Source: a virus
IMG/VR virus record: IMGVR_UViG_3300047312_000028
Coordinates: 112,326 to 176,325 of that record
Length of the DNA: 64,000 bases
Direction: 5' to 3' (one strand)
Shown here piece after piece: positions 40,505 to 48,148 of this stretch (its first letter is position 1; each line of letters starts with the position of its first letter). Under the pieces are notes generated by a model. It saw nothing but the letters and a program-made list of their open reading frames with translations. It was not told the origin of the DNA and did not search any database. Position numbers and translations under genes: made by a program.

Positions 40505-40974
40505 TCTATATTGCGCACAGAGGTAATATCAAAGGTTCGGATCCTCAACGAGAAAATGCGCCTGGATACATCGACGAGGCTTTGAACCTGGGGTATAAAG
40601 CTGAGGTTGATCTGTGGGCAGAGGGTGACCAATTGTGGCTCGGCCACGATGCTCCCCTTTACCCAATCTACATTGATTTCATTCGATGTAGACAACGAGA
40701 ACTCTTTGTTCACTGCAAGAATACAGATGCACTAGATGCCGTAAGATCAGGTAAAGTTGATGCCCATTACTTCTTTCACCAACATGATGACTACACATTG
40801 ACCAGTGAAGGCCTTGTATGGGTCTATCCTGGTCGCATGATGTGTGATAAGTCAATCCTCGTCCTTCCTGAGTCGTGGCTTAACAACGATCAGTATGTTG
40901 ATTACATAGAGCGATGGCAAGGTAAGATCGTTGGTGTGTGTTCAGATTTTGTTGACACACTCAAGACTTTATAA
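40501..40974 (+). CDS. glycerophosphodiester phosphodiesterase-like (PLC-like) small protein
   Basis: IAHRGN, EN, EVD, LGHD, HCKN, GVCSD. Confidence 0.8.
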   Translation: MIYIAHRGNIKGSDPQRENAPGYIDEALNLGYKAEVDLWAEGDQLWLGHDAPLYPIYIDFIRCRQRELFVHCKNTDALDAVRSGKVDAHYFFHQHDDYTLTSEGLVWVYPGRMMCDKSILVLPESWLNNDQYVDYIERWQGKIVGVCSDFVDTLKTL

Positions 40975-40977
40975 ATA
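40970..40977 (+). promoter_or_regulatory. T4-type late promoter
   Basis: TATAAATA upstream of the 41014 ORF. Confidence 0.8.
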
Positions 40978-41013: not shown

Positions 41014-43440
41014 TTGTATCTACCAAAAGACGGCCTTAATATCTCCAGAGAACTTCTCCCCCAGGTCGCCAACGCGGACCTCCCCGATTACTTCAATTGG
41101 CTTAAAACTAACAAGCAAATCTCCTGCATTACTACCGAATTGCCTGTTTCTTCGCTTCATCCATCACAAGGTGACTTCAATGAAGAGAAGATTGCCGAAT
41201 TGATGACGCATAGACTGGAAGAACTCAAAAAGCCAATCATTGTGTCTTCTGACTTCTTCGTGCTCGATGGTCACCATCGTTGGCTAGCGTTGCTCAATAT
41301 GGACCAGAACGACACTATACCGGTAGTCATGACGAATGTGAAGATCATGGATCTGCTTGCAGCCACGAAAGAGTATCCTAAGTCATTCACTAGAACTGTG
41401 GTCGAATCATTCAAGAGTATGATCGGTAGCAAACATGCGGTTATGTCTTATGCCCGCATGAATCCTCCAACGAAGGGTCATGAGAAGCTGATTCATACGG
41501 TGCATCATGTAGCGAATGAGTTTGCCGCTCACCATGAGATCGTATTAAGTCATAAACACGACAACACAAAGAACCCATTGAGCCAGGAGACCAAGCACAG
41601 CTACCTGAAGCAGATGTTTCCAGATACAAATTTTGTGAACGCAACAGATGAACATCCAAGTATATTTCACCACGCGACACGTTTGAATCGCGCAGGATAC
41701 AAGCATTTACATGTGGTCGCTGGTGATGATCGTGCCAAAGAGTTTGAGGAGAAATTACATAAATACAACGGGCACTATGATGACGCAGGCAACGGCTATA
41801 AATTCGACTCGATAACTCTTCACTCCGCTGGTTCGAGAAACCCAGAAGGAAAAGGACTTGAGGGGTTATCGGGTACGAAATTGCGTGATTATGCAGCAAA
41901 TGGGAACTATCCAGAATTTGCAAAAGGTGTGCCAGGATCAACAGAAGTCGCCAAAAGACTCTACAACGATGTGCGACAAGGATTAAAACCGATGAACGAG
42001 AGTGCAGAACTTCTAGAAGAAGGCGTCCATGACGCTGCTATTTTCAAGGCCGTGTTTCTTGCTGGTGCACCAGGCTCCGGTAAAGACTATGTTCTTAAGC
42101 ATGCCTTAGATGGCCACGGTCTTACAGAGATCAGTTCAGATCCGATGTTGACCCATTTGATCGATAAGAACCAAATGGATCGAAAGATGCCAGAGCATGA
42201 GCAAGAGAAGCGTGGCCTGTTGAGAAAGAAAGCTCAATCACTCACCGACCTGCGCCAGAAGCTTGCATTACATGGTCGCAACGGTATCATAGTCAACGGT
42301 TCAGGTGCTAGTTTTGACCAGGTTAAGAAAATCAAAGGTATGCTTGATGAACTAGGCTATGCCTGCAAGATGATCTTTGTAGATACCAGCGACAATGTAA
42401 GCCGCAATCGCAATATCGAACGTGGTCAGAAGGGCGGTCGCACTGTTCCTGAGAAAGCACGAGCAGAGAAGTGGAGAGCCGCGCAGGATTCTCGTGTCAA
42501 TTTCTCTAAACTCTTTGGTTCTGAGAACTATCACGAATTCAACAACGACGAAGACCTCCGCAATAACACTGACGGTGAAGTACATAAGCAGAAGACGAAA
42601 GAACTTGAAGACCTCTTCAAGACAGTCAAGAAGTTTACGCAGCAACCACCGGAGCATCCATCTGCACAAGAATGGGTTCATAAGAATCTTGGTAAGCTTG
42701 CAAAGCAACCACTTGGCAACAAGACTCAGCAAAAGAAGCAAATCCCGGCTTCACCCGATGCACAAGCGACAGAAGACGCCCGCAAACTTGGGCTTCAGTA
42801 CTATGGGTATGGTCGCTATGGTAAAGCAGGACGTGTCACGCATTTCTCATTGAACGGCAAACTGGTAGAGAAGAAGAAAGCATTGACTCCACCTAAGTCG
42901 TTAGAACCAGCAAAAACAACAAAGAAGCTTGATGAAGCTTTTGAAGAACTATTTACGGAGGATAATGATGAACGTATACGATTGGAAAATCACATGGCTT
43001 CTTCTTTTGTGGTGGGAGGATTGGAAGTGGTTCCTTTACATGTACAATACCTCTCCGACACCATGCGAGGACACAGAGAAAGAGTTGATAAAAACAGTCA
43101 AGACAGATTCAGTAACCTCCGTGAATACGTTTGTGAAACCAGCAGGAGTGAAGTTCGAGTGGGAACCGACAAAAGTGACACCAAAGCGCAAGGTAACCAA
43201 GAAGAGAAACCCCAAGAAACAACTTCTTCTTTCCGAGGGCTCATGGAACGATTGGGGTCTAGAAGAACAGAAGTCAAAAAAGAAATCCTCAAAGAAGGCG
43301 AGCCGACGCAAGACGTAGGAGGTGACGGTGGTCCTATTCTTGGTACTGGAACCGCCGAGACTGTTGATAGTACAAACGGTGGCATTGCCACGAACGGTCC
43401 AAAGAAGACATTGAAGAAGTTCAAGGGAGATATCAAGTAA
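41014..43440 (+). CDS. polyvalent virion-type protein: ParB/Srx-like + HIGH-family cytidylyl/adenylyltransferase + zeta-toxin/Pnk-like P-loop kinase
   Basis: L.PSQ..LDGHHRW; RMNPPTKGH..VAGDDR..SGTKLR; FLAGAPGSGK..RN..R; TTG start after GAGGGG. Confidence 0.8.
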   Translation: MYLPKDGLNISRELLPQVANADLPDYFNWLKTNKQISCITTELPVSSLHPSQGDFNEEKIAELMTHRLEELKKPIIVSSDFFVLDGHHRWLALLNMDQNDTIPVVMTNVKIMDLLAATKEYPKSFTRTVVESFKSMIGSKHAVMSYARMNPPTKGHEKLIHTVHHVANEFAAHHEIVLSHKHDNTKNPLSQETKHSYLKQMFPDTNFVNATDEHPSIFHHATRLNRAGYKHLHVVAGDDRAKEFEEKLHKYNGHYDDAGNGYKFDSITLHSAGSRNPEGKGLEGLSGTKLRDYAANGNYPEFAKGVPGSTEVAKRLYNDVRQGLKPMNESAELLEEGVHDAAIFKAVFLAGAPGSGKDYVLKHALDGHGLTEISSDPMLTHLIDKNQMDRKMPEHEQEKRGLLRKKAQSLTDLRQKLALHGRNGIIVNGSGASFDQVKKIKGMLDELGYACKMIFVDTSDNVSRNRNIERGQKGGRTVPEKARAEKWRAAQDSRVNFSKLFGSENYHEFNNDEDLRNNTDGEVHKQKTKELEDLFKTVKKFTQQPPEHPSAQEWVHKNLGKLAKQPLGNKTQQKKQIPASPDAQATEDARKLGLQYYGYGRYGKAGRVTHFSLNGKLVEKKKALTPPKSLEPAKTTKKLDEAFEELFTEDNDERIRLENHMASSFVVGGLEVVPLHVQYLSDTMRGHRERVDKNSQDRFSNLREYVCETSRSEVRVGTDKSDTKAQGNQEEKPQETTSSFRGLMERLGSRRTEVKKEILKEGEPTQDVGGDGGPILGTGTAETVDSTNGGIATNGPKKTLKKFKGDIK
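42965..43318 (+). CDS. nested out-of-frame ORF (Trp-rich N-terminus, Lys-rich C-terminus)
   Basis: GGAGG (42957-42961) before ATGATG; 117 codons open in another frame inside the 41014 ORF. Confidence 0.45.
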   Translation: MMNVYDWKITWLLLLWWEDWKWFLYMYNTSPTPCEDTEKELIKTVKTDSVTSVNTFVKPAGVKFEWEPTKVTPKRKVTKKRNPKKQLLLSEGSWNDWGLEEQKSKKKSSKKASRRKT

Positions 43441-45281
43441 TGGATACCTCAACGAAGTGGACGCCAGCCGTAAAGACTGCCCATCATTATCAGGGGCAGA
43501 TCAACGGTAAGACATATGTGGTACCTCATGCGTCTTTGAATATCTATCACAAAGGTGGATATGCAGAGCCGATGCGTCATTCGATTGTCACTTCGTTGCA
43601 TCATGTGCAGCATAACAATCCAGACTTGACGCCTGAAGAACATACACGAGTGCATGAACATATCAAGGCAATTCATGGGGGACAAGCGCCTGCCAAGCTG
43701 AAGGAAGAAATCAAAATCACCACGACGCCTGCAACACGAAAAGAGTTGAAGGCGGCACGACCAATGCGTAAAGGAGCCGCGGAGAGATTTATGAAAAGAT
43801 TTGCTGCCAAAACAGAACTAGAAAAAAAAGAACAACTCAGTGAATCAAAACAAAAGCTCTACAATCCCGATGGGTCGTTTCGAGCCGGCGTCAAAGTGAC
43901 CGTCGATGGAAAGCACGGAGAGATCAGTCATGTTCATCACAGTCAAGAACACCCAACCTATCCACACTCCTATAAAGTCACTGACTTGGGCGCGAATGAT
44001 CCCTACAAACAAACTCGTTTACGCGGCAACACATTCATTTCACATAGAGACATAAAGCCATTAGAAGAACGAGCATTAACTGCCGCCGAGACGGACAAGA
44101 AAGAGGATATGGTGCATTCCATGAAGAAGAACCTTCAGAGCTTCAAAGATCGATACGGCGCGGACGCCAAGAGTGTGATGTACGCGACGGCGACGAAGAA
44201 AGCAAAAGAGTTGGCAGAACGAAGTGAGAACTTCATGTTTACCCATCACCCTGGCGACCCAGAGAGCGAAGATAAGTTGAAACGCGCTAAACAAATGCTA
44301 CAGGGTACCGGTAAGAAGCTGCACGTTCGCGCCCGTTTAGGAAAAGACAATCCTAACGCCCATGAATATAAGAACAACACGCGCCATGGGCATCCTGCTT
44401 CAAATAGATATCAGACGATCTTGAAGCAAGACGCCAAGCATTTTGACGTATACAAGCGTCCAAGCATTCATGAAGAATCGCATGGTAGTAACTTCCTTGA
44501 TAAGGACCGTACAGACGCCAAGATCAATCGACGTAAAAGTTTTGCGGCTCATGCGAAAGAGAAGAGAGAGAATGAAGCCCATAAGGATAATCATCATGAG
44601 GGTCCTTTGAATGAAAGTCTCTCTGCCTTTATGAAGACCTATAAGAAAAACGAAGCACGAAACGAACACCAAGCTAATATGGTGCATCTTGCAAAACACT
44701 TCGGTAATGAAGCCGATCAAAAAGAAGCACAGTTTTACTATGATGAACAGAAGAAGCACGGAGAGAATAGACACTCCGAAGCTCAATCTAAGTTACACAG
44801 AAAGTTATGGCCGAGAGCAGTAGCCAAACACACCTATAGCAATTACAACGAAGAGGTAGACGCCATGAGTCAACTTAACGAAACATTACATGCGTACCAG
44901 GTACATCACAACGGCAAGCATATCGACACTGTATTCTATGGTAGTCACGAAGACCCAGCCGATGTGAAGAAGTCGTTGGTCAACCATGATGGTTATGACC
45001 CAGGCATCACAATCAAGAAAGAAAAGTTCCATCACCTTCCAGTGAGAAAGAACCTGAAGGAAGAAACACCATCCAAGCTTCCATTGATTCGATCTGTGTT
45101 GAAAGAAATGTCCACCCGTAAACACTTTCAACAAGTGGCCGATTTGATTAAGGCGAACCCAGATGCGAAGAAGCGCCAGGAGTTTGCGAATCATCATGCT
45201 ACAGTGTTTGCGGCGCAGAACCCACGTTTCAACCATGAGTTATTTCATAAGGCCGCGGGCACCACATATACGAAATCATAA
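43440..45281 (+). CDS. putative internal-head polyprotein of small His/Lys-rich modules
   Basis: about 10 modules separated by LKEE, LSES, LEER, LAER, IHEE, LNES, LNET, LKEE, LKEM. Confidence 0.65.
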   Translation: MDTSTKWTPAVKTAHHYQGQINGKTYVVPHASLNIYHKGGYAEPMRHSIVTSLHHVQHNNPDLTPEEHTRVHEHIKAIHGGQAPAKLKEEIKITTTPATRKELKAARPMRKGAAERFMKRFAAKTELEKKEQLSESKQKLYNPDGSFRAGVKVTVDGKHGEISHVHHSQEHPTYPHSYKVTDLGANDPYKQTRLRGNTFISHRDIKPLEERALTAAETDKKEDMVHSMKKNLQSFKDRYGADAKSVMYATATKKAKELAERSENFMFTHHPGDPESEDKLKRAKQMLQGTGKKLHVRARLGKDNPNAHEYKNNTRHGHPASNRYQTILKQDAKHFDVYKRPSIHEESHGSNFLDKDRTDAKINRRKSFAAHAKEKRENEAHKDNHHEGPLNESLSAFMKTYKKNEARNEHQANMVHLAKHFGNEADQKEAQFYYDEQKKHGENRHSEAQSKLHRKLWPRAVAKHTYSNYNEEVDAMSQLNETLHAYQVHHNGKHIDTVFYGSHEDPADVKKSLVNHDGYDPGITIKKEKFHHLPVRKNLKEETPSKLPLIRSVLKEMSTRKHFQQVADLIKANPDAKKRQEFANHHATVFAAQNPRFNHELFHKAAGTTYTKS

Positions 45282-45289
45282 GGACTGAT

Positions 45290-46585
45290 ATGAAGAAGTT
45301 CACTGAGTTAAAAGAAAACACACCGACAGTGCATACCTACAGAGGGTACTCTATCAAGGAGTATGAGGGAAAGTTCCATGTGCAGAAGACGCCTGGGACT
45401 ACTCTATCCCATCATGCCAGCAAGAAGGATGCCAAGAGTCGTATCGATTACTACCACAGGCTCCCAGATAAGAGCATGTCGCATGGTGATATGGTCTCGT
45501 TGGTCAATGAAACAAAGTGGCATGTTAAAGAAGAGAAAGAAGTACCGAAGAGCACACTACCTAGCGACGAACCAAAGAAGAATGAGGAGTCTATCAAGAA
45601 CATATCTGCGCATGATAAAAGGACTCTATCACTCATGAAGTCAATGTTTGGTCGCCGCCCTATGAAGGAAGAGACAGAGCGAGAACGTAAGTCTCATGCT
45701 GTGCGTATGGCACCTGCACCTACTAATGACCAATTAGAAAAGCGGGATGAGTCAGATGATCTTATCAAGAAGAATTTTGAGACTGCACAAAAGAAAACGG
45801 CTGATGCACTTGCCTCTAAGGAAATCACGAAAGTCATGAAAGAGTCAGTCGGTAGTGTACCGGGTGGCGGTGTGCTCGACGAAAGCGGACCTGATACATA
45901 CAAAGTCGGAGATCATGTCATTGCAAAGATCGGTCCTCACGCTGGTCAGGTGCATAGAGTCATTCATGTGCATCCTACAGGGCATCTGAATATTACACCA
46001 ATCGGGCACAGCAACCGATATAAGTTAGGGGCAGCGAAAGCGAACCCAGAAGATGTGACGCGACAGCTTGAAGAAGCGAAGAAGAAACCTAAAAAGAAGT
46101 TCGTACCAGATCCAAAGATTTGGAAAAAACTGCCCGTACTATCAAAGCTCCTAGGTGTCAAATTAGAAGAATCGATCATATCACGCACGACAGTCCAAGA
46201 GGTCTTTCAGGCAGCGAAAGCGAAGAAGAAAGAAGCGGGTAAAGACAAGAAAGAGATCAAGACTGACCCAAAGAAAGATCCAAAGAAAGAGAAAGTGTCA
46301 GCACAAGACTTTGACAAACCGAAGGAGTTTCAGGACCCTGGGCAAGCTGAACCAGATCAGACCGAAGTCCAGGCAAAACCCCCTCAGTTCGGCGGCAAAG
46401 ACGGTGACGATGCAAAGCCCAAGGAGAAGAAGAACAACACTCCAGAGCCAGAAAAGAAGGGCACAAAGCTTGTAGTCAAGGGCCCTGGTGCTGATGACAA
46501 GTTCCAGACCGATCCTATCGTAACCCCTGTGACAACGTTGCCGGACACGGCATCCGCACGAACCGGTAGCCAAGGGGTCAGGTAA
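45290..46585 (+). CDS. putative internal-head polyprotein with capsid-targeting-like N-terminus and KOW module
   Basis: MKKFTELKE; VNET, VKEE, MKEE, MKES, LDES, LEEA, LEES; KVGDHV..KIGPHAG. Confidence 0.65.
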   Translation: MKKFTELKENTPTVHTYRGYSIKEYEGKFHVQKTPGTTLSHHASKKDAKSRIDYYHRLPDKSMSHGDMVSLVNETKWHVKEEKEVPKSTLPSDEPKKNEESIKNISAHDKRTLSLMKSMFGRRPMKEETERERKSHAVRMAPAPTNDQLEKRDESDDLIKKNFETAQKKTADALASKEITKVMKESVGSVPGGGVLDESGPDTYKVGDHVIAKIGPHAGQVHRVIHVHPTGHLNITPIGHSNRYKLGAAKANPEDVTRQLEEAKKKPKKKFVPDPKIWKKLPVLSKLLGVKLEESIISRTTVQEVFQAAKAKKKEAGKDKKEIKTDPKKDPKKEKVSAQDFDKPKEFQDPGQAEPDQTEVQAKPPQFGGKDGDDAKPKEKKNNTPEPEKKGTKLVVKGPGADDKFQTDPIVTPVTTLPDTASARTGSQGVR

Positions 46586-46587
46586 CA

Positions 46588-46595
46588 TATAAATA
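46588..46595 (+). promoter_or_regulatory. T4-type late promoter
   Basis: TATAAATA. Confidence 0.8.
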
Positions 46596-47713: not shown

Positions 47714-48148
47714 ATGAAAGCATTCGATTTGTTTTTGAAAGAACATGCGATGGGGGAGGAGCCTCTTCTCCCCTCTACGCAAGGCGAACTGGGTGCTCTA
47801 GATTTACATGATGAACAAGTCAGAGATGGCTTGAACATGGAGCTTCTAGATATCACAGATAGTCCTGAACGTATGCTTCCTGTGATTACTTTCGATAGAG
47901 TGCGCGAGGTACTTGGAGCCGCTGGCTACTGGATCCCTTCCGCCACTATGAACTCTGCACTCTTTGATGAAGAGATAGGGGATGAAGTATTCGTATTGTC
48001 TCCACCTACGAAGGATGCCGATCAACCAGTGAAAGCAGATTGTTATTTGTATTTTGCATTTGCAGAGACCGAAACAGGTGATTGGGATGTATTGGCTGAA
48101 GTAGTCAACTCCTTGGAGCTAGAAGATATTCTTTCAGATCAACAGTAA
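47714..48148 (+). CDS. acidic protein with capsid-targeting-like N-terminus
   Basis: MKAFDLFLKE; late operon. Confidence 0.55.
   Translation: MKAFDLFLKEHAMGEEPLLPSTQGELGALDLHDEQVRDGLNMELLDITDSPERMLPVITFDRVREVLGAAGYWIPSATMNSALFDEEIGDEVFVLSPPTKDADQPVKADCYLYFAFAETETGDWDVLAEVVNSLELEDILSDQQ

Follow-up and report, generated by a model that had tools for sequence, protein, structure and literature searches.

Two adjacent open reading frames (ORFs) of an uncultured T4-like myovirus of 176 kb, here called ORF1 and ORF2, probably encode prohead cargo polyproteins that would be cut by a gp21-type protease into small, mostly basic pieces retained with the DNA. We put the probability of this reading at about two in three. 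The ORFs are found at positions 43440–45281 and 45290–46585, where a preliminary description of this DNA had already placed them. The analysed window is a stretch of 64,000 nucleotides (nt) covering bases 112326–176325 of the 176,325-bp virus record IMGVR_UViG_3300047312_000028 (IMG/VR), which is rated complete by CheckV. According to our proposal, ORF1 and ORF2 would be synthesized late and incorporated into the prohead core during its assembly. A T4-like N-terminal capsid-targeting leader would bring in ORF2; ORF1 may depend on its conserved end modules or on binding to other proteins of the core. Within the prohead, the gp21-type (S77) protease would cut after the glutamate of [LIVM]-x-E joints, so that ORF1 would yield about 10 pieces and ORF2 about 7. 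The predicted pieces are mostly of 4–10 kDa, with two short peptides of ~1–2 kDa and one piece of 15 kDa, and most of them are basic. They would remain alongside the DNA and, at infection, probably exit the head together with it. Packaging and cleavage of ORF1 and ORF2 are well-supported inferences from sequence; we also infer that the pieces are ejected with the DNA.

Shuffled modules and conserved joints

Relatives of ORF1 were collected at E<=1e-3 in a search of 1.84 billion cluster representatives. These 1787 proteins have 79–1445 amino acids (aa) and each presents one to five separate stretches matching ORF1, and the mapping of these stretches onto ORF1 defined about ten modules (A to I). 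Starts and ends of the alignments pile up at ORF1 residues 82–90, 201–210, 257–268, 391–400, 472–482 and 551–556. The module borders, set independently by where homology starts and stops, hold nine of the ten [LIVM]xE sites of ORF1, which bears out the coincidence of sites and boundaries supposed in the preliminary description. Breakpoint density near the ORF1 sites is 20.1, versus 7.4 at random positions (P=0.001) and 8.2 at other glutamates, and for ORF2 it is 5.7 versus 2.5 (P=0.02).

The joints are conserved even when their surroundings are not. Irrespective of the sequence upstream, an [LIVM]xE stands exactly ahead of module I in 88 relatives out of 99 and exactly ahead of module D in 58 out of 64. 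Ahead of module E the position is exact in 39 of 60 relatives and within three residues in 56, and a site is found at most three residues from the start of module G in 24 of 33; the background for these counts is 2.3% per position. At the joints, P1 Glu and P3 Leu/Ile are fixed and P2 is variable (D, N, E, A, H, R). The sequences upstream of the joints are of unrelated types, such as TVKSVLNE, EEVEQLDE and PHLPEETIEE. Modules in first position within a protein follow a short Met leader that ends in the motif (MKKEELELDE/KTLT, MTTLKQLKE/SKS, MKSFKHYLEE/GSGPTRKH, with a slash at the putative cut). Module H is also a protein in its own right, of about 47 aa, among others in Pseudomonas Pakpunavirus phages. 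In PAK_P1 (L084, NC_015294.2, 56660–56803) it is the 47-aa gene PAK_P100096, which has no Glu-ending leader and whose neighbours are small hypothetical, non-structural genes. The unrelated upstream sequences, the motif-ended Met leaders and the leaderless free module H argue together that the motif belongs to the joint, not to the modules. The module cores are motif-poor (4 versus 26 expected for A, 2 versus 34 for D), which lends weak support only because the sequences are related.

The two ORFs had been described as strings of mutually dissimilar modules, some of them reading like stand-alone small phage proteins. The homology search agrees and shows the modules to be independent, as they are shuffled among relatives and occur as free genes; modules C, D, H and I stand alone, in solitary proteins of 79–123 aa. 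Free-standing relatives include P0053 and P0125. The architectures found include A-D-G-iI, A-BCD-H-I, I-D, G-D, G-D-iI, I-I, D-D and H-H, where i is a mini-module ahead of I. The same picture emerges from syntenic loci. A locus search with single proteins returned one locus for ORF1 and none for ORF0, the gene just upstream, and an alignment query found further loci. Those available in full are L002/L003, L005 and L006 (the L004 contig ends soon after ORF0). Four syntenic relatives have an ORF0 with 55–59% identity, and in the loci available in full the downstream genes are the same. The ORF1-like protein has 761, 369 or 579 aa and the ORF2-like protein 850, 222 or 207 aa. What stays constant is the ends, namely A and i+I in ORF1 and the leader, a KOW-like barrel and the C-terminal tail in ORF2. 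The interior is variable, its cassettes being swapped, dropped, duplicated and reordered at the joints among close relatives.

Structure prediction gives a compatible view, in which the models look like beads on a string. The ORF1 model, from an 82-sequence alignment, has a mean predicted local distance difference test score (pLDDT) of 73 and a predicted template modelling score (pTM) of 0.30. Modules A, D, G, H and I are modelled as confident separate units (pLDDT >90), and C reaches 75–86. The low-confidence linkers (residues 83–112, 126–139, 289–358, 375–389 and 532–545) hold four of nine junction sites; LNE392 lies three residues past the linker 375–389, and three further sites lie between secondary-structure elements. 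The ORF2 model is confident only at residues 199–262, with disorder predicted for the last ~100 residues, and four of the sites in ORF2 are next to low-confidence linkers. Residues 199–262 resemble the NusG KOW domain 2xhc_A (Z 8.3, root mean square deviation 2.4 Å, 55 residues aligned) and the Spt5 KOW domain 4zn3_A (Z 8.2). The KOW/SH3-like unit announced by the preliminary description is recovered here at the level of fold, and Z values near 8 speak for the fold only, not for a function.

Similarities to characterized proteins are otherwise scarce. Pfam gave no family for ORF1 and ORF2 at E<=0.1, and in particular no peptidase, and their PHROG matches are two families, both of unknown function, with no scaffold or core family. 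The PDB sequence search returned nothing at E<=1 for ORF1 and chance-level rows only for the ORF2 profile. When the whole ORF1 model was compared with the PDB by Foldseek, no match at E<=0.001 was found, only weak Tudor/SH3/CarD-like rows, and for module C the matches were weak Tudor/SH3-like ones. Module H matches BFVD models with template modelling scores of 0.7–0.97, and an ESM Atlas cluster of 48-aa proteins. Free proteins with the folds of H and I, of ~48–57 aa, are present in both BFVD and the ESM Atlas; the latter gave no usable feature matches, and its structure matches are unnamed clusters of 48–57-aa proteins. Across the Pfam, PHROG, PDB, Foldseek and ESM Atlas searches, no module matched a protein of known function.

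A prohead protease, leaders and the head block

The phage encodes a T4 gp21-type prohead protease (gene at G000:C1:105306–105959; PF03420 at G000:C1:105354–105815, E 2.5e-32; phrog_207, E 1e-68), and PF03420 is encoded in all ten large contigs tested, which carry an ORF0-like gene or module I. T4 gp23 is cut after Glu65. In the major capsid protein of the present phage, the sequence ...ARMLNE/SAPTN aligns beside LTE (residues 63–65) of T4 gp23, whose propeptide has 65 residues (PMC5694885). This LNE/S is of the same motif type as the LNE/S and LNE/T of ORF1, and T4 gp24 starts with MAKINELLRE/S. The capsid-targeting sequence of T4 is MKTYQEFIAE. As reported in the preliminary description, ORF2 starts with MKKFTELKE, and T4-like leaders (e.g. 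MKKFTEFIAE) are present in 21 of 36 ORF2 relatives and 20 of 149 ORF1 relatives. In the phage's own proteome, five of 270 proteins have such a leader, including the protease and ORF2.

Modules and joints of this type are also found among head genes. In L132 the tube and portal genes are followed by one for a 289-aa module-I protein, one for a gp67-like acidic protein and three small genes, after which come protease and scaffold. In the head block of the phage itself, the interval between portal and protease (G000:C1:102939–104505; L165:4940–6506) encodes two further multi-module proteins. One, of 235 aa, has a gp67-like middle, an EETEQLDE linker and a C-terminal KNWIAGAVKNKGG...ARLAKTLKGF module; the other, of 284 aa, has the probable start MKEFTDLRKQLYE and the linkers EEEQLQE and EDIEELDE. 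The EETEQLDE/EDIEELDE-type linkers indicate that the head block uses the same joint style as ORF1 and ORF2. The label gp67-like is based on position, a weak pattern match and a phrog_1064 match in L089; BLASTP between T4 gp67 and gp68 and the phage's head-block proteins is weak (E 0.37 and 0.11).

The closest known system is that of the T4 internal proteins IPI, IPII, IPIII and Alt, diverse proteins that share the targeting sequence only and are cut by gp21 (PMC3012670, PMC5694885). Common to both are the S77 protease, a leader (here of 9 residues and in ORF2 only), the L/I-x-E cut rule and small basic products (both predicted here), a late-promoter-like motif before the operon and a hypervariable content. 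However, in T4 every gene encodes a single cargo that has a leader of its own, whereas ~7–10 unrelated cargos are chained per gene here, with internal sites. ORF1 differs further in being leaderless, and constant end modules frame a variable interior. No T4 internal-protein family is among the Pfam and PHROG matches of ORF1 and ORF2, no direct alignment having been made.

Three other systems deserve comparison. Polyvalent proteins (Iyer et al. 2017, PMC5512222) also combine many unrelated domains, a late context, a proposed proteolytic release and delivery with the DNA, and ORF0, with its ParB-like, nucleotidyltransferase and zeta-like kinase domains, fits this class well. Their domains are, however, large enzymatic conflict domains, with release proposed to depend on an embedded zincin-like peptidase (PMC5512222), whereas the units of ORF1 and ORF2 have 30–90 aa, show no conflict, enzymatic, LPD or peptidase domain in Pfam at E<=0.1 and are joined in a way that fits a protease acting in trans. 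Among ORF0, ORF1 and ORF2, domains of the polyvalent kind are limited to ORF0. Phages phiKZ, 201phi2-1 and SPN3US have head-internal proteins that are cut at x-x-E by a T4-related protease and ejected (PMC5694885, PMC7411985, PMC10052503), some of them at several sites, as proposed for ORF1 and ORF2. In that group, by contrast, propeptides exceed 100 aa, mostly one mature product results, the motif is S/A/G-x-E and there are no chains of shuffled mini-modules. The T4 core proteins gp67, gp68 and gp22 undergo several L/I-x-E cuts, and module-I relatives and EQLDE-type linkers are encoded between portal and protease genes. Unlike these core proteins, ORF1 and ORF2 are encoded away from the head block, have no match to a family of scaffold or core proteins and vary much more. 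In the literature searched, no paper describing chains of shuffled mini-modules joined at prohead-protease sites was found.

Arguments for and against cleavage and delivery

Several observations weigh against cargo polyproteins that are packaged and cut. The motif count inside ORF1 and ORF2, taken alone, is marginally above chance and constitutes weak evidence: ORF1 has nine [LI]xE against 4.2 in shuffled sequences (p=0.019), the ten [LIVM]xE against 7.2 are not significant, and neither is the count in ORF2. The relatives share descent, so that the conserved-joint and motif-poor-core counts are not independent events. The specificity of the protease for the joints is carried over from T4 by analogy. 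One site, LAE260, is inside a predicted helix, and pieces of 1–6 kDa might escape from the capsid instead of being retained. The locus is ~45 kb from the head genes, amid genes for replication and nucleotide metabolism. Finally, a leader is missing from ORF1, which begins with MDTSTKW straight in module A, and from its closest relatives; the proposed packaging of ORF1 therefore rests indirectly on leader-bearing relatives, shared modules in head blocks and the operon context.

That the two are ordinary uncleaved multidomain late proteins, with the motif acting as a helix cap or an acidic flexible linker, seems very improbable to us. The missing leader of ORF1 and the position outside the head block would suit such proteins, [LIVM]xE is a common tripeptide (1.5% of positions in the phage proteome), and EEVEQLDE-like linkers are possibly plain acidic spacers. 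Left unexplained, however, are the unrelated upstream sequences that end in [LIVM]-x-E at a module edge (88/99, 58/64), the motif-ended short Met leaders on first-position modules, the T4-targeting-like N-termini in the ORF2 family and the same modules and linkers in head-core blocks beside the protease. The least probable of the readings considered is a sacrificial gp22-like scaffold or core filler, chopped and expelled before DNA packaging so that nothing is delivered. T4 gp22, gp67 and gp68 are indeed cut to short fragments (PMC5694885), the sites of ORF1 and ORF2 are many and closely spaced with small predicted pieces, and the phage's own scaffold is motif-rich (13 [LI]xE versus 6.8 expected). 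But that scaffold is the canonical gene (phrog_237), already present, and a hypervariable content with a two- to four-fold spread in length among close relatives misfits an essential size-determining scaffold. Moreover, the pieces are predicted to be folded and basic, whereas the expelled T4 fragments are mostly acidic or unstructured.

If the cargo polyproteins are packaged and cut, the use of the pieces has to be considered. Tentatively, although this is less likely than not, they could be a plug-in cargo, folded mini-proteins of ~50–90 aa injected with the DNA as anti-defence or host-takeover factors. The end modules and the leader would then load the polyprotein, recombination at the joints would add new cargos, and a single gene would bring in about ten effectors as soon as infection starts. 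The turnover of cassettes and the homologs that stand free in other phages are in keeping with effectors. The composition is in keeping with binding to DNA or a role as counter-ions, which is as compatible with the data as the 'micro-effectors' of the preliminary description. We find it rather doubtful that the role of the pieces is physical, i.e. that they neutralise or organise the packed DNA or aid packaging or ejection, as the bulk T4 internal proteins do, with a largely neutral turnover of modules. Most predicted pieces have an isoelectric point of 8–10, Lys makes up 12–16% of the residues and Cys is absent, ORF2 has a long disordered K/E/P/D-rich tail, Lys residues of T4 internal proteins touch DNA phosphates (PMC3012670), and no module matches a known enzyme or inhibitor. 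Yet several modules are confidently folded, sequence-conserved small domains rather than generic basic peptides. Modules H and I are also encoded alone, as small genes, in the case of H in unrelated phages including PAK_P1, and close relatives differ sharply in their cassettes, a pattern usual for conflict loci, the T-even internal-protein locus among them.

If the pieces are indeed packaged and released, the pre-made payload of environmental T4-like phages would be larger and more changeable than the T4 model suggests. The joint rule, a leader plus [LIVM]-x-E between shuffled modules, could be used as a finder for virion cargo in uncultured phage genomes. The modules would represent a large pool of small folded proteins, the ORF1 family alone comprising >1700 cluster representatives, and are candidates for interference with the host or its defences in the first minute. 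The layout also hints at a natural model for loading several cargos into T4-based capsid vectors.

Operon layout, composition and neighbouring genes

The features of the locus are collected in Table 1.

Table 1. Features of the ORF0–ORF1–ORF2 locus; positions are those of the window, residues those of each protein.
Feature	Position	Strand	Residues and end	Remarks
Late-promoter-like motif TATAAATA	40970..40977	+		44 nt before ORF0; probably drives ORF0-ORF1-ORF2
ORF0	41014..43440	+	808 aa	first gene of the operon; ParB-like, cytidylyltransferase-like and zeta-toxin/AAA_33-type P-loop kinase domains, variable Lys-rich tail
ORF1	43440..45281	+	613 aa	~10 modules (A-I), no N-terminal leader
ORF1 module A	43440..43706	+	1-89, LKE89	conserved N-terminal 'bookend'; beta-rich part then helix; pLDDT >90
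ORF1 module B	43707..43844	+	90-135, LSE135	basic; poorly modelled
ORF1 module C	43845..44069	+	136-210, LEE210	beta-rich, SH3-like; free-standing in P0074, P0145
ORF1 module D	44070..44219	+	211-260, LAE260	helical, TLTxAE...VMYATATKxAKxLAE; also in cyanophage proteins
ORF1 modules E and F	44220..44615	+	261-345, IHE345; 346-392, LNE392	model mostly disordered
ORF1 module G	44616..44882	+	393-481, LNE481	helical bundle, pLDDT 93-97
ORF1 module H	44883..45062	+	482-541, LKE541	small beta-alpha unit; phrog_6353
ORF1 mini-module i and module I	45063..45278	+	542-556, LKE556; 557-613	conserved C-terminal 'bookend'
ORF2	45290..46585	+	431 aa	
ORF2 leader MKKFTELKE	45290..45316	+	1-9	resembles T4 capsid-targeting sequence
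ORF2 variable cargo region	45317..45883	+	10-198; sites VNE74, MKE127, MKE185, LDE198	
ORF2 KOW/SH3-like barrel	45884..46075	+	199-262, LEE262	family-conserved; pLDDT 85-92
ORF2 basic spacer and conserved C-terminal region	46076..46585	+	263-294, LEE294; 295-431	
Second TATAAATA	46588..46595	+		3 nt past ORF2 stop, 21 nt before NT5C-like gene; downstream end of the operon

The preliminary description had placed both ORFs downstream of a late promoter. The motif TATAAATA is present, but it precedes ORF0 and not directly ORF1 or ORF2. The ORF0 stop overlaps the ATG of ORF1 in the sequence TAATG, and the gap between ORF1 and ORF2 is 8 nt. Together, TATAAATA before ORF0, the TAATG overlap and the 8-nt gap point to a three-gene late operon, ORF0-ORF1-ORF2, closed by the second TATAAATA at 46588. 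In the whole genome, NATAAATA has 26 copies on the + strand, of which 16 are at most 80 nt upstream of a gene start. The genes so preceded that were identified by homology are those for sheath, tube, scaffold and the gp67-like head-block protein after the portal. Most of the others are in the 58–109 kb part of the genome, also home of the portal, protease and capsid genes, and in the replication half NATAAATA (window 32143, 40970 and 46588) is found at three genes only, including ORF0 and the NT5C-like gene. As a motif, NATAAATA is therefore a credible late promoter in this phage. Promoter-like (sigma-70) and terminator-like matches across the operon stretch are no commoner than in shuffled sequence. 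The TAATG overlap had also suggested a programmed frameshift that would fuse ORF0 and ORF1. This is unnecessary, because the overlap is a usual termination-reinitiation one that L005 and L006 share.

The composition of the two proteins is unusual for this phage. They are His/Lys-rich, as had been described, with K 11.9% and H 8.6% in ORF1 and K 16.2% in ORF2, and both are devoid of Cys; the whole proteome has K 6.1%, H 2.4% and C 1.3%. All 13 [LIVM]-x-E sites listed in the preliminary description are present, and two junction sites can be added, LKE541/E in ORF1 and LEE294/S in ORF2.

Some modules have further distinctive traits. Module A is the first module in ~40 relatives, in some of them behind an MKSFKQVAE-type leader, and module I has the pattern TRKHF...HHA..F...NPRF. 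In ORF2, residues 10–77 have no match in the 36 relatives and residues 78–198 have a match in some only; elsewhere the place of this region is taken by other modules, DUF5661 among them. The KOW-like barrel is present in the L002 protein in two clear copies plus a third, more divergent variant. DUF5661 (PF18905) is an interchangeable cargo module in ORF2 relatives (L002:8465–11017, P0155–P0188), and a head-internal context is likely for this domain. The C-terminal region of ORF2 consists of a short helix, a long disordered K/E/P/D-rich stretch and the tail KGPGxDDKFQxDPIVTP. In the ORF2 family (P0153–P0188), the tail sequence VKGPGxDDKFQxDPIVTPLTTMPDTASPKSGSQGVR is strongly conserved (window 46490–46582, residues ~395–431). 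It has no known counterpart and could be an anchor in the core or at the portal.

The setting is that of a T4-like genome, which encodes a gp43-type DNA polymerase (48% identity with cyanophage enzymes), gp41 helicase, gp61 primase, a gp46-like nuclease, CobS and NAMPT. The genes for sheath, tube, portal, S77 prohead protease, scaffold and major capsid protein are upstream of the window. A nucleotide search of cultured phages gave a single match of 125 nt, and tblastn of ORF2 against cultured phages gave none. Cultured candidate carriers of modules of the family include the Synechococcus phages DSL-LC02 (protein WJZ48229.1), S-CRM01, S-B05 and S-H68.

ORF0 is 59% identical to its L002 homolog, with which it is colinear. 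In the Pelagibacter phage HTVC008M, the region matching ORF0 corresponds to two adjacent genes (a cytidyltransferase and a hypothetical protein), and in T4-like cyanophages the cytidyltransferase is a separate gene. The domain borders of ORF0 present VVE131/S and MNE329/S, whose V-V-E and M-N-E residues are conserved in L002, and ORF0 may be processed like ORF1 and ORF2. Past the second TATAAATA come the NT5C-like gene, a 190-aa Gly-rich ORF and then an acidic 144-aa ORF (window 47714–48148), which begins with MKAFDLFLKE, a capsid-targeting-like leader. The Gly-rich 190-aa ORF has a weak 'head closure' PHROG match.

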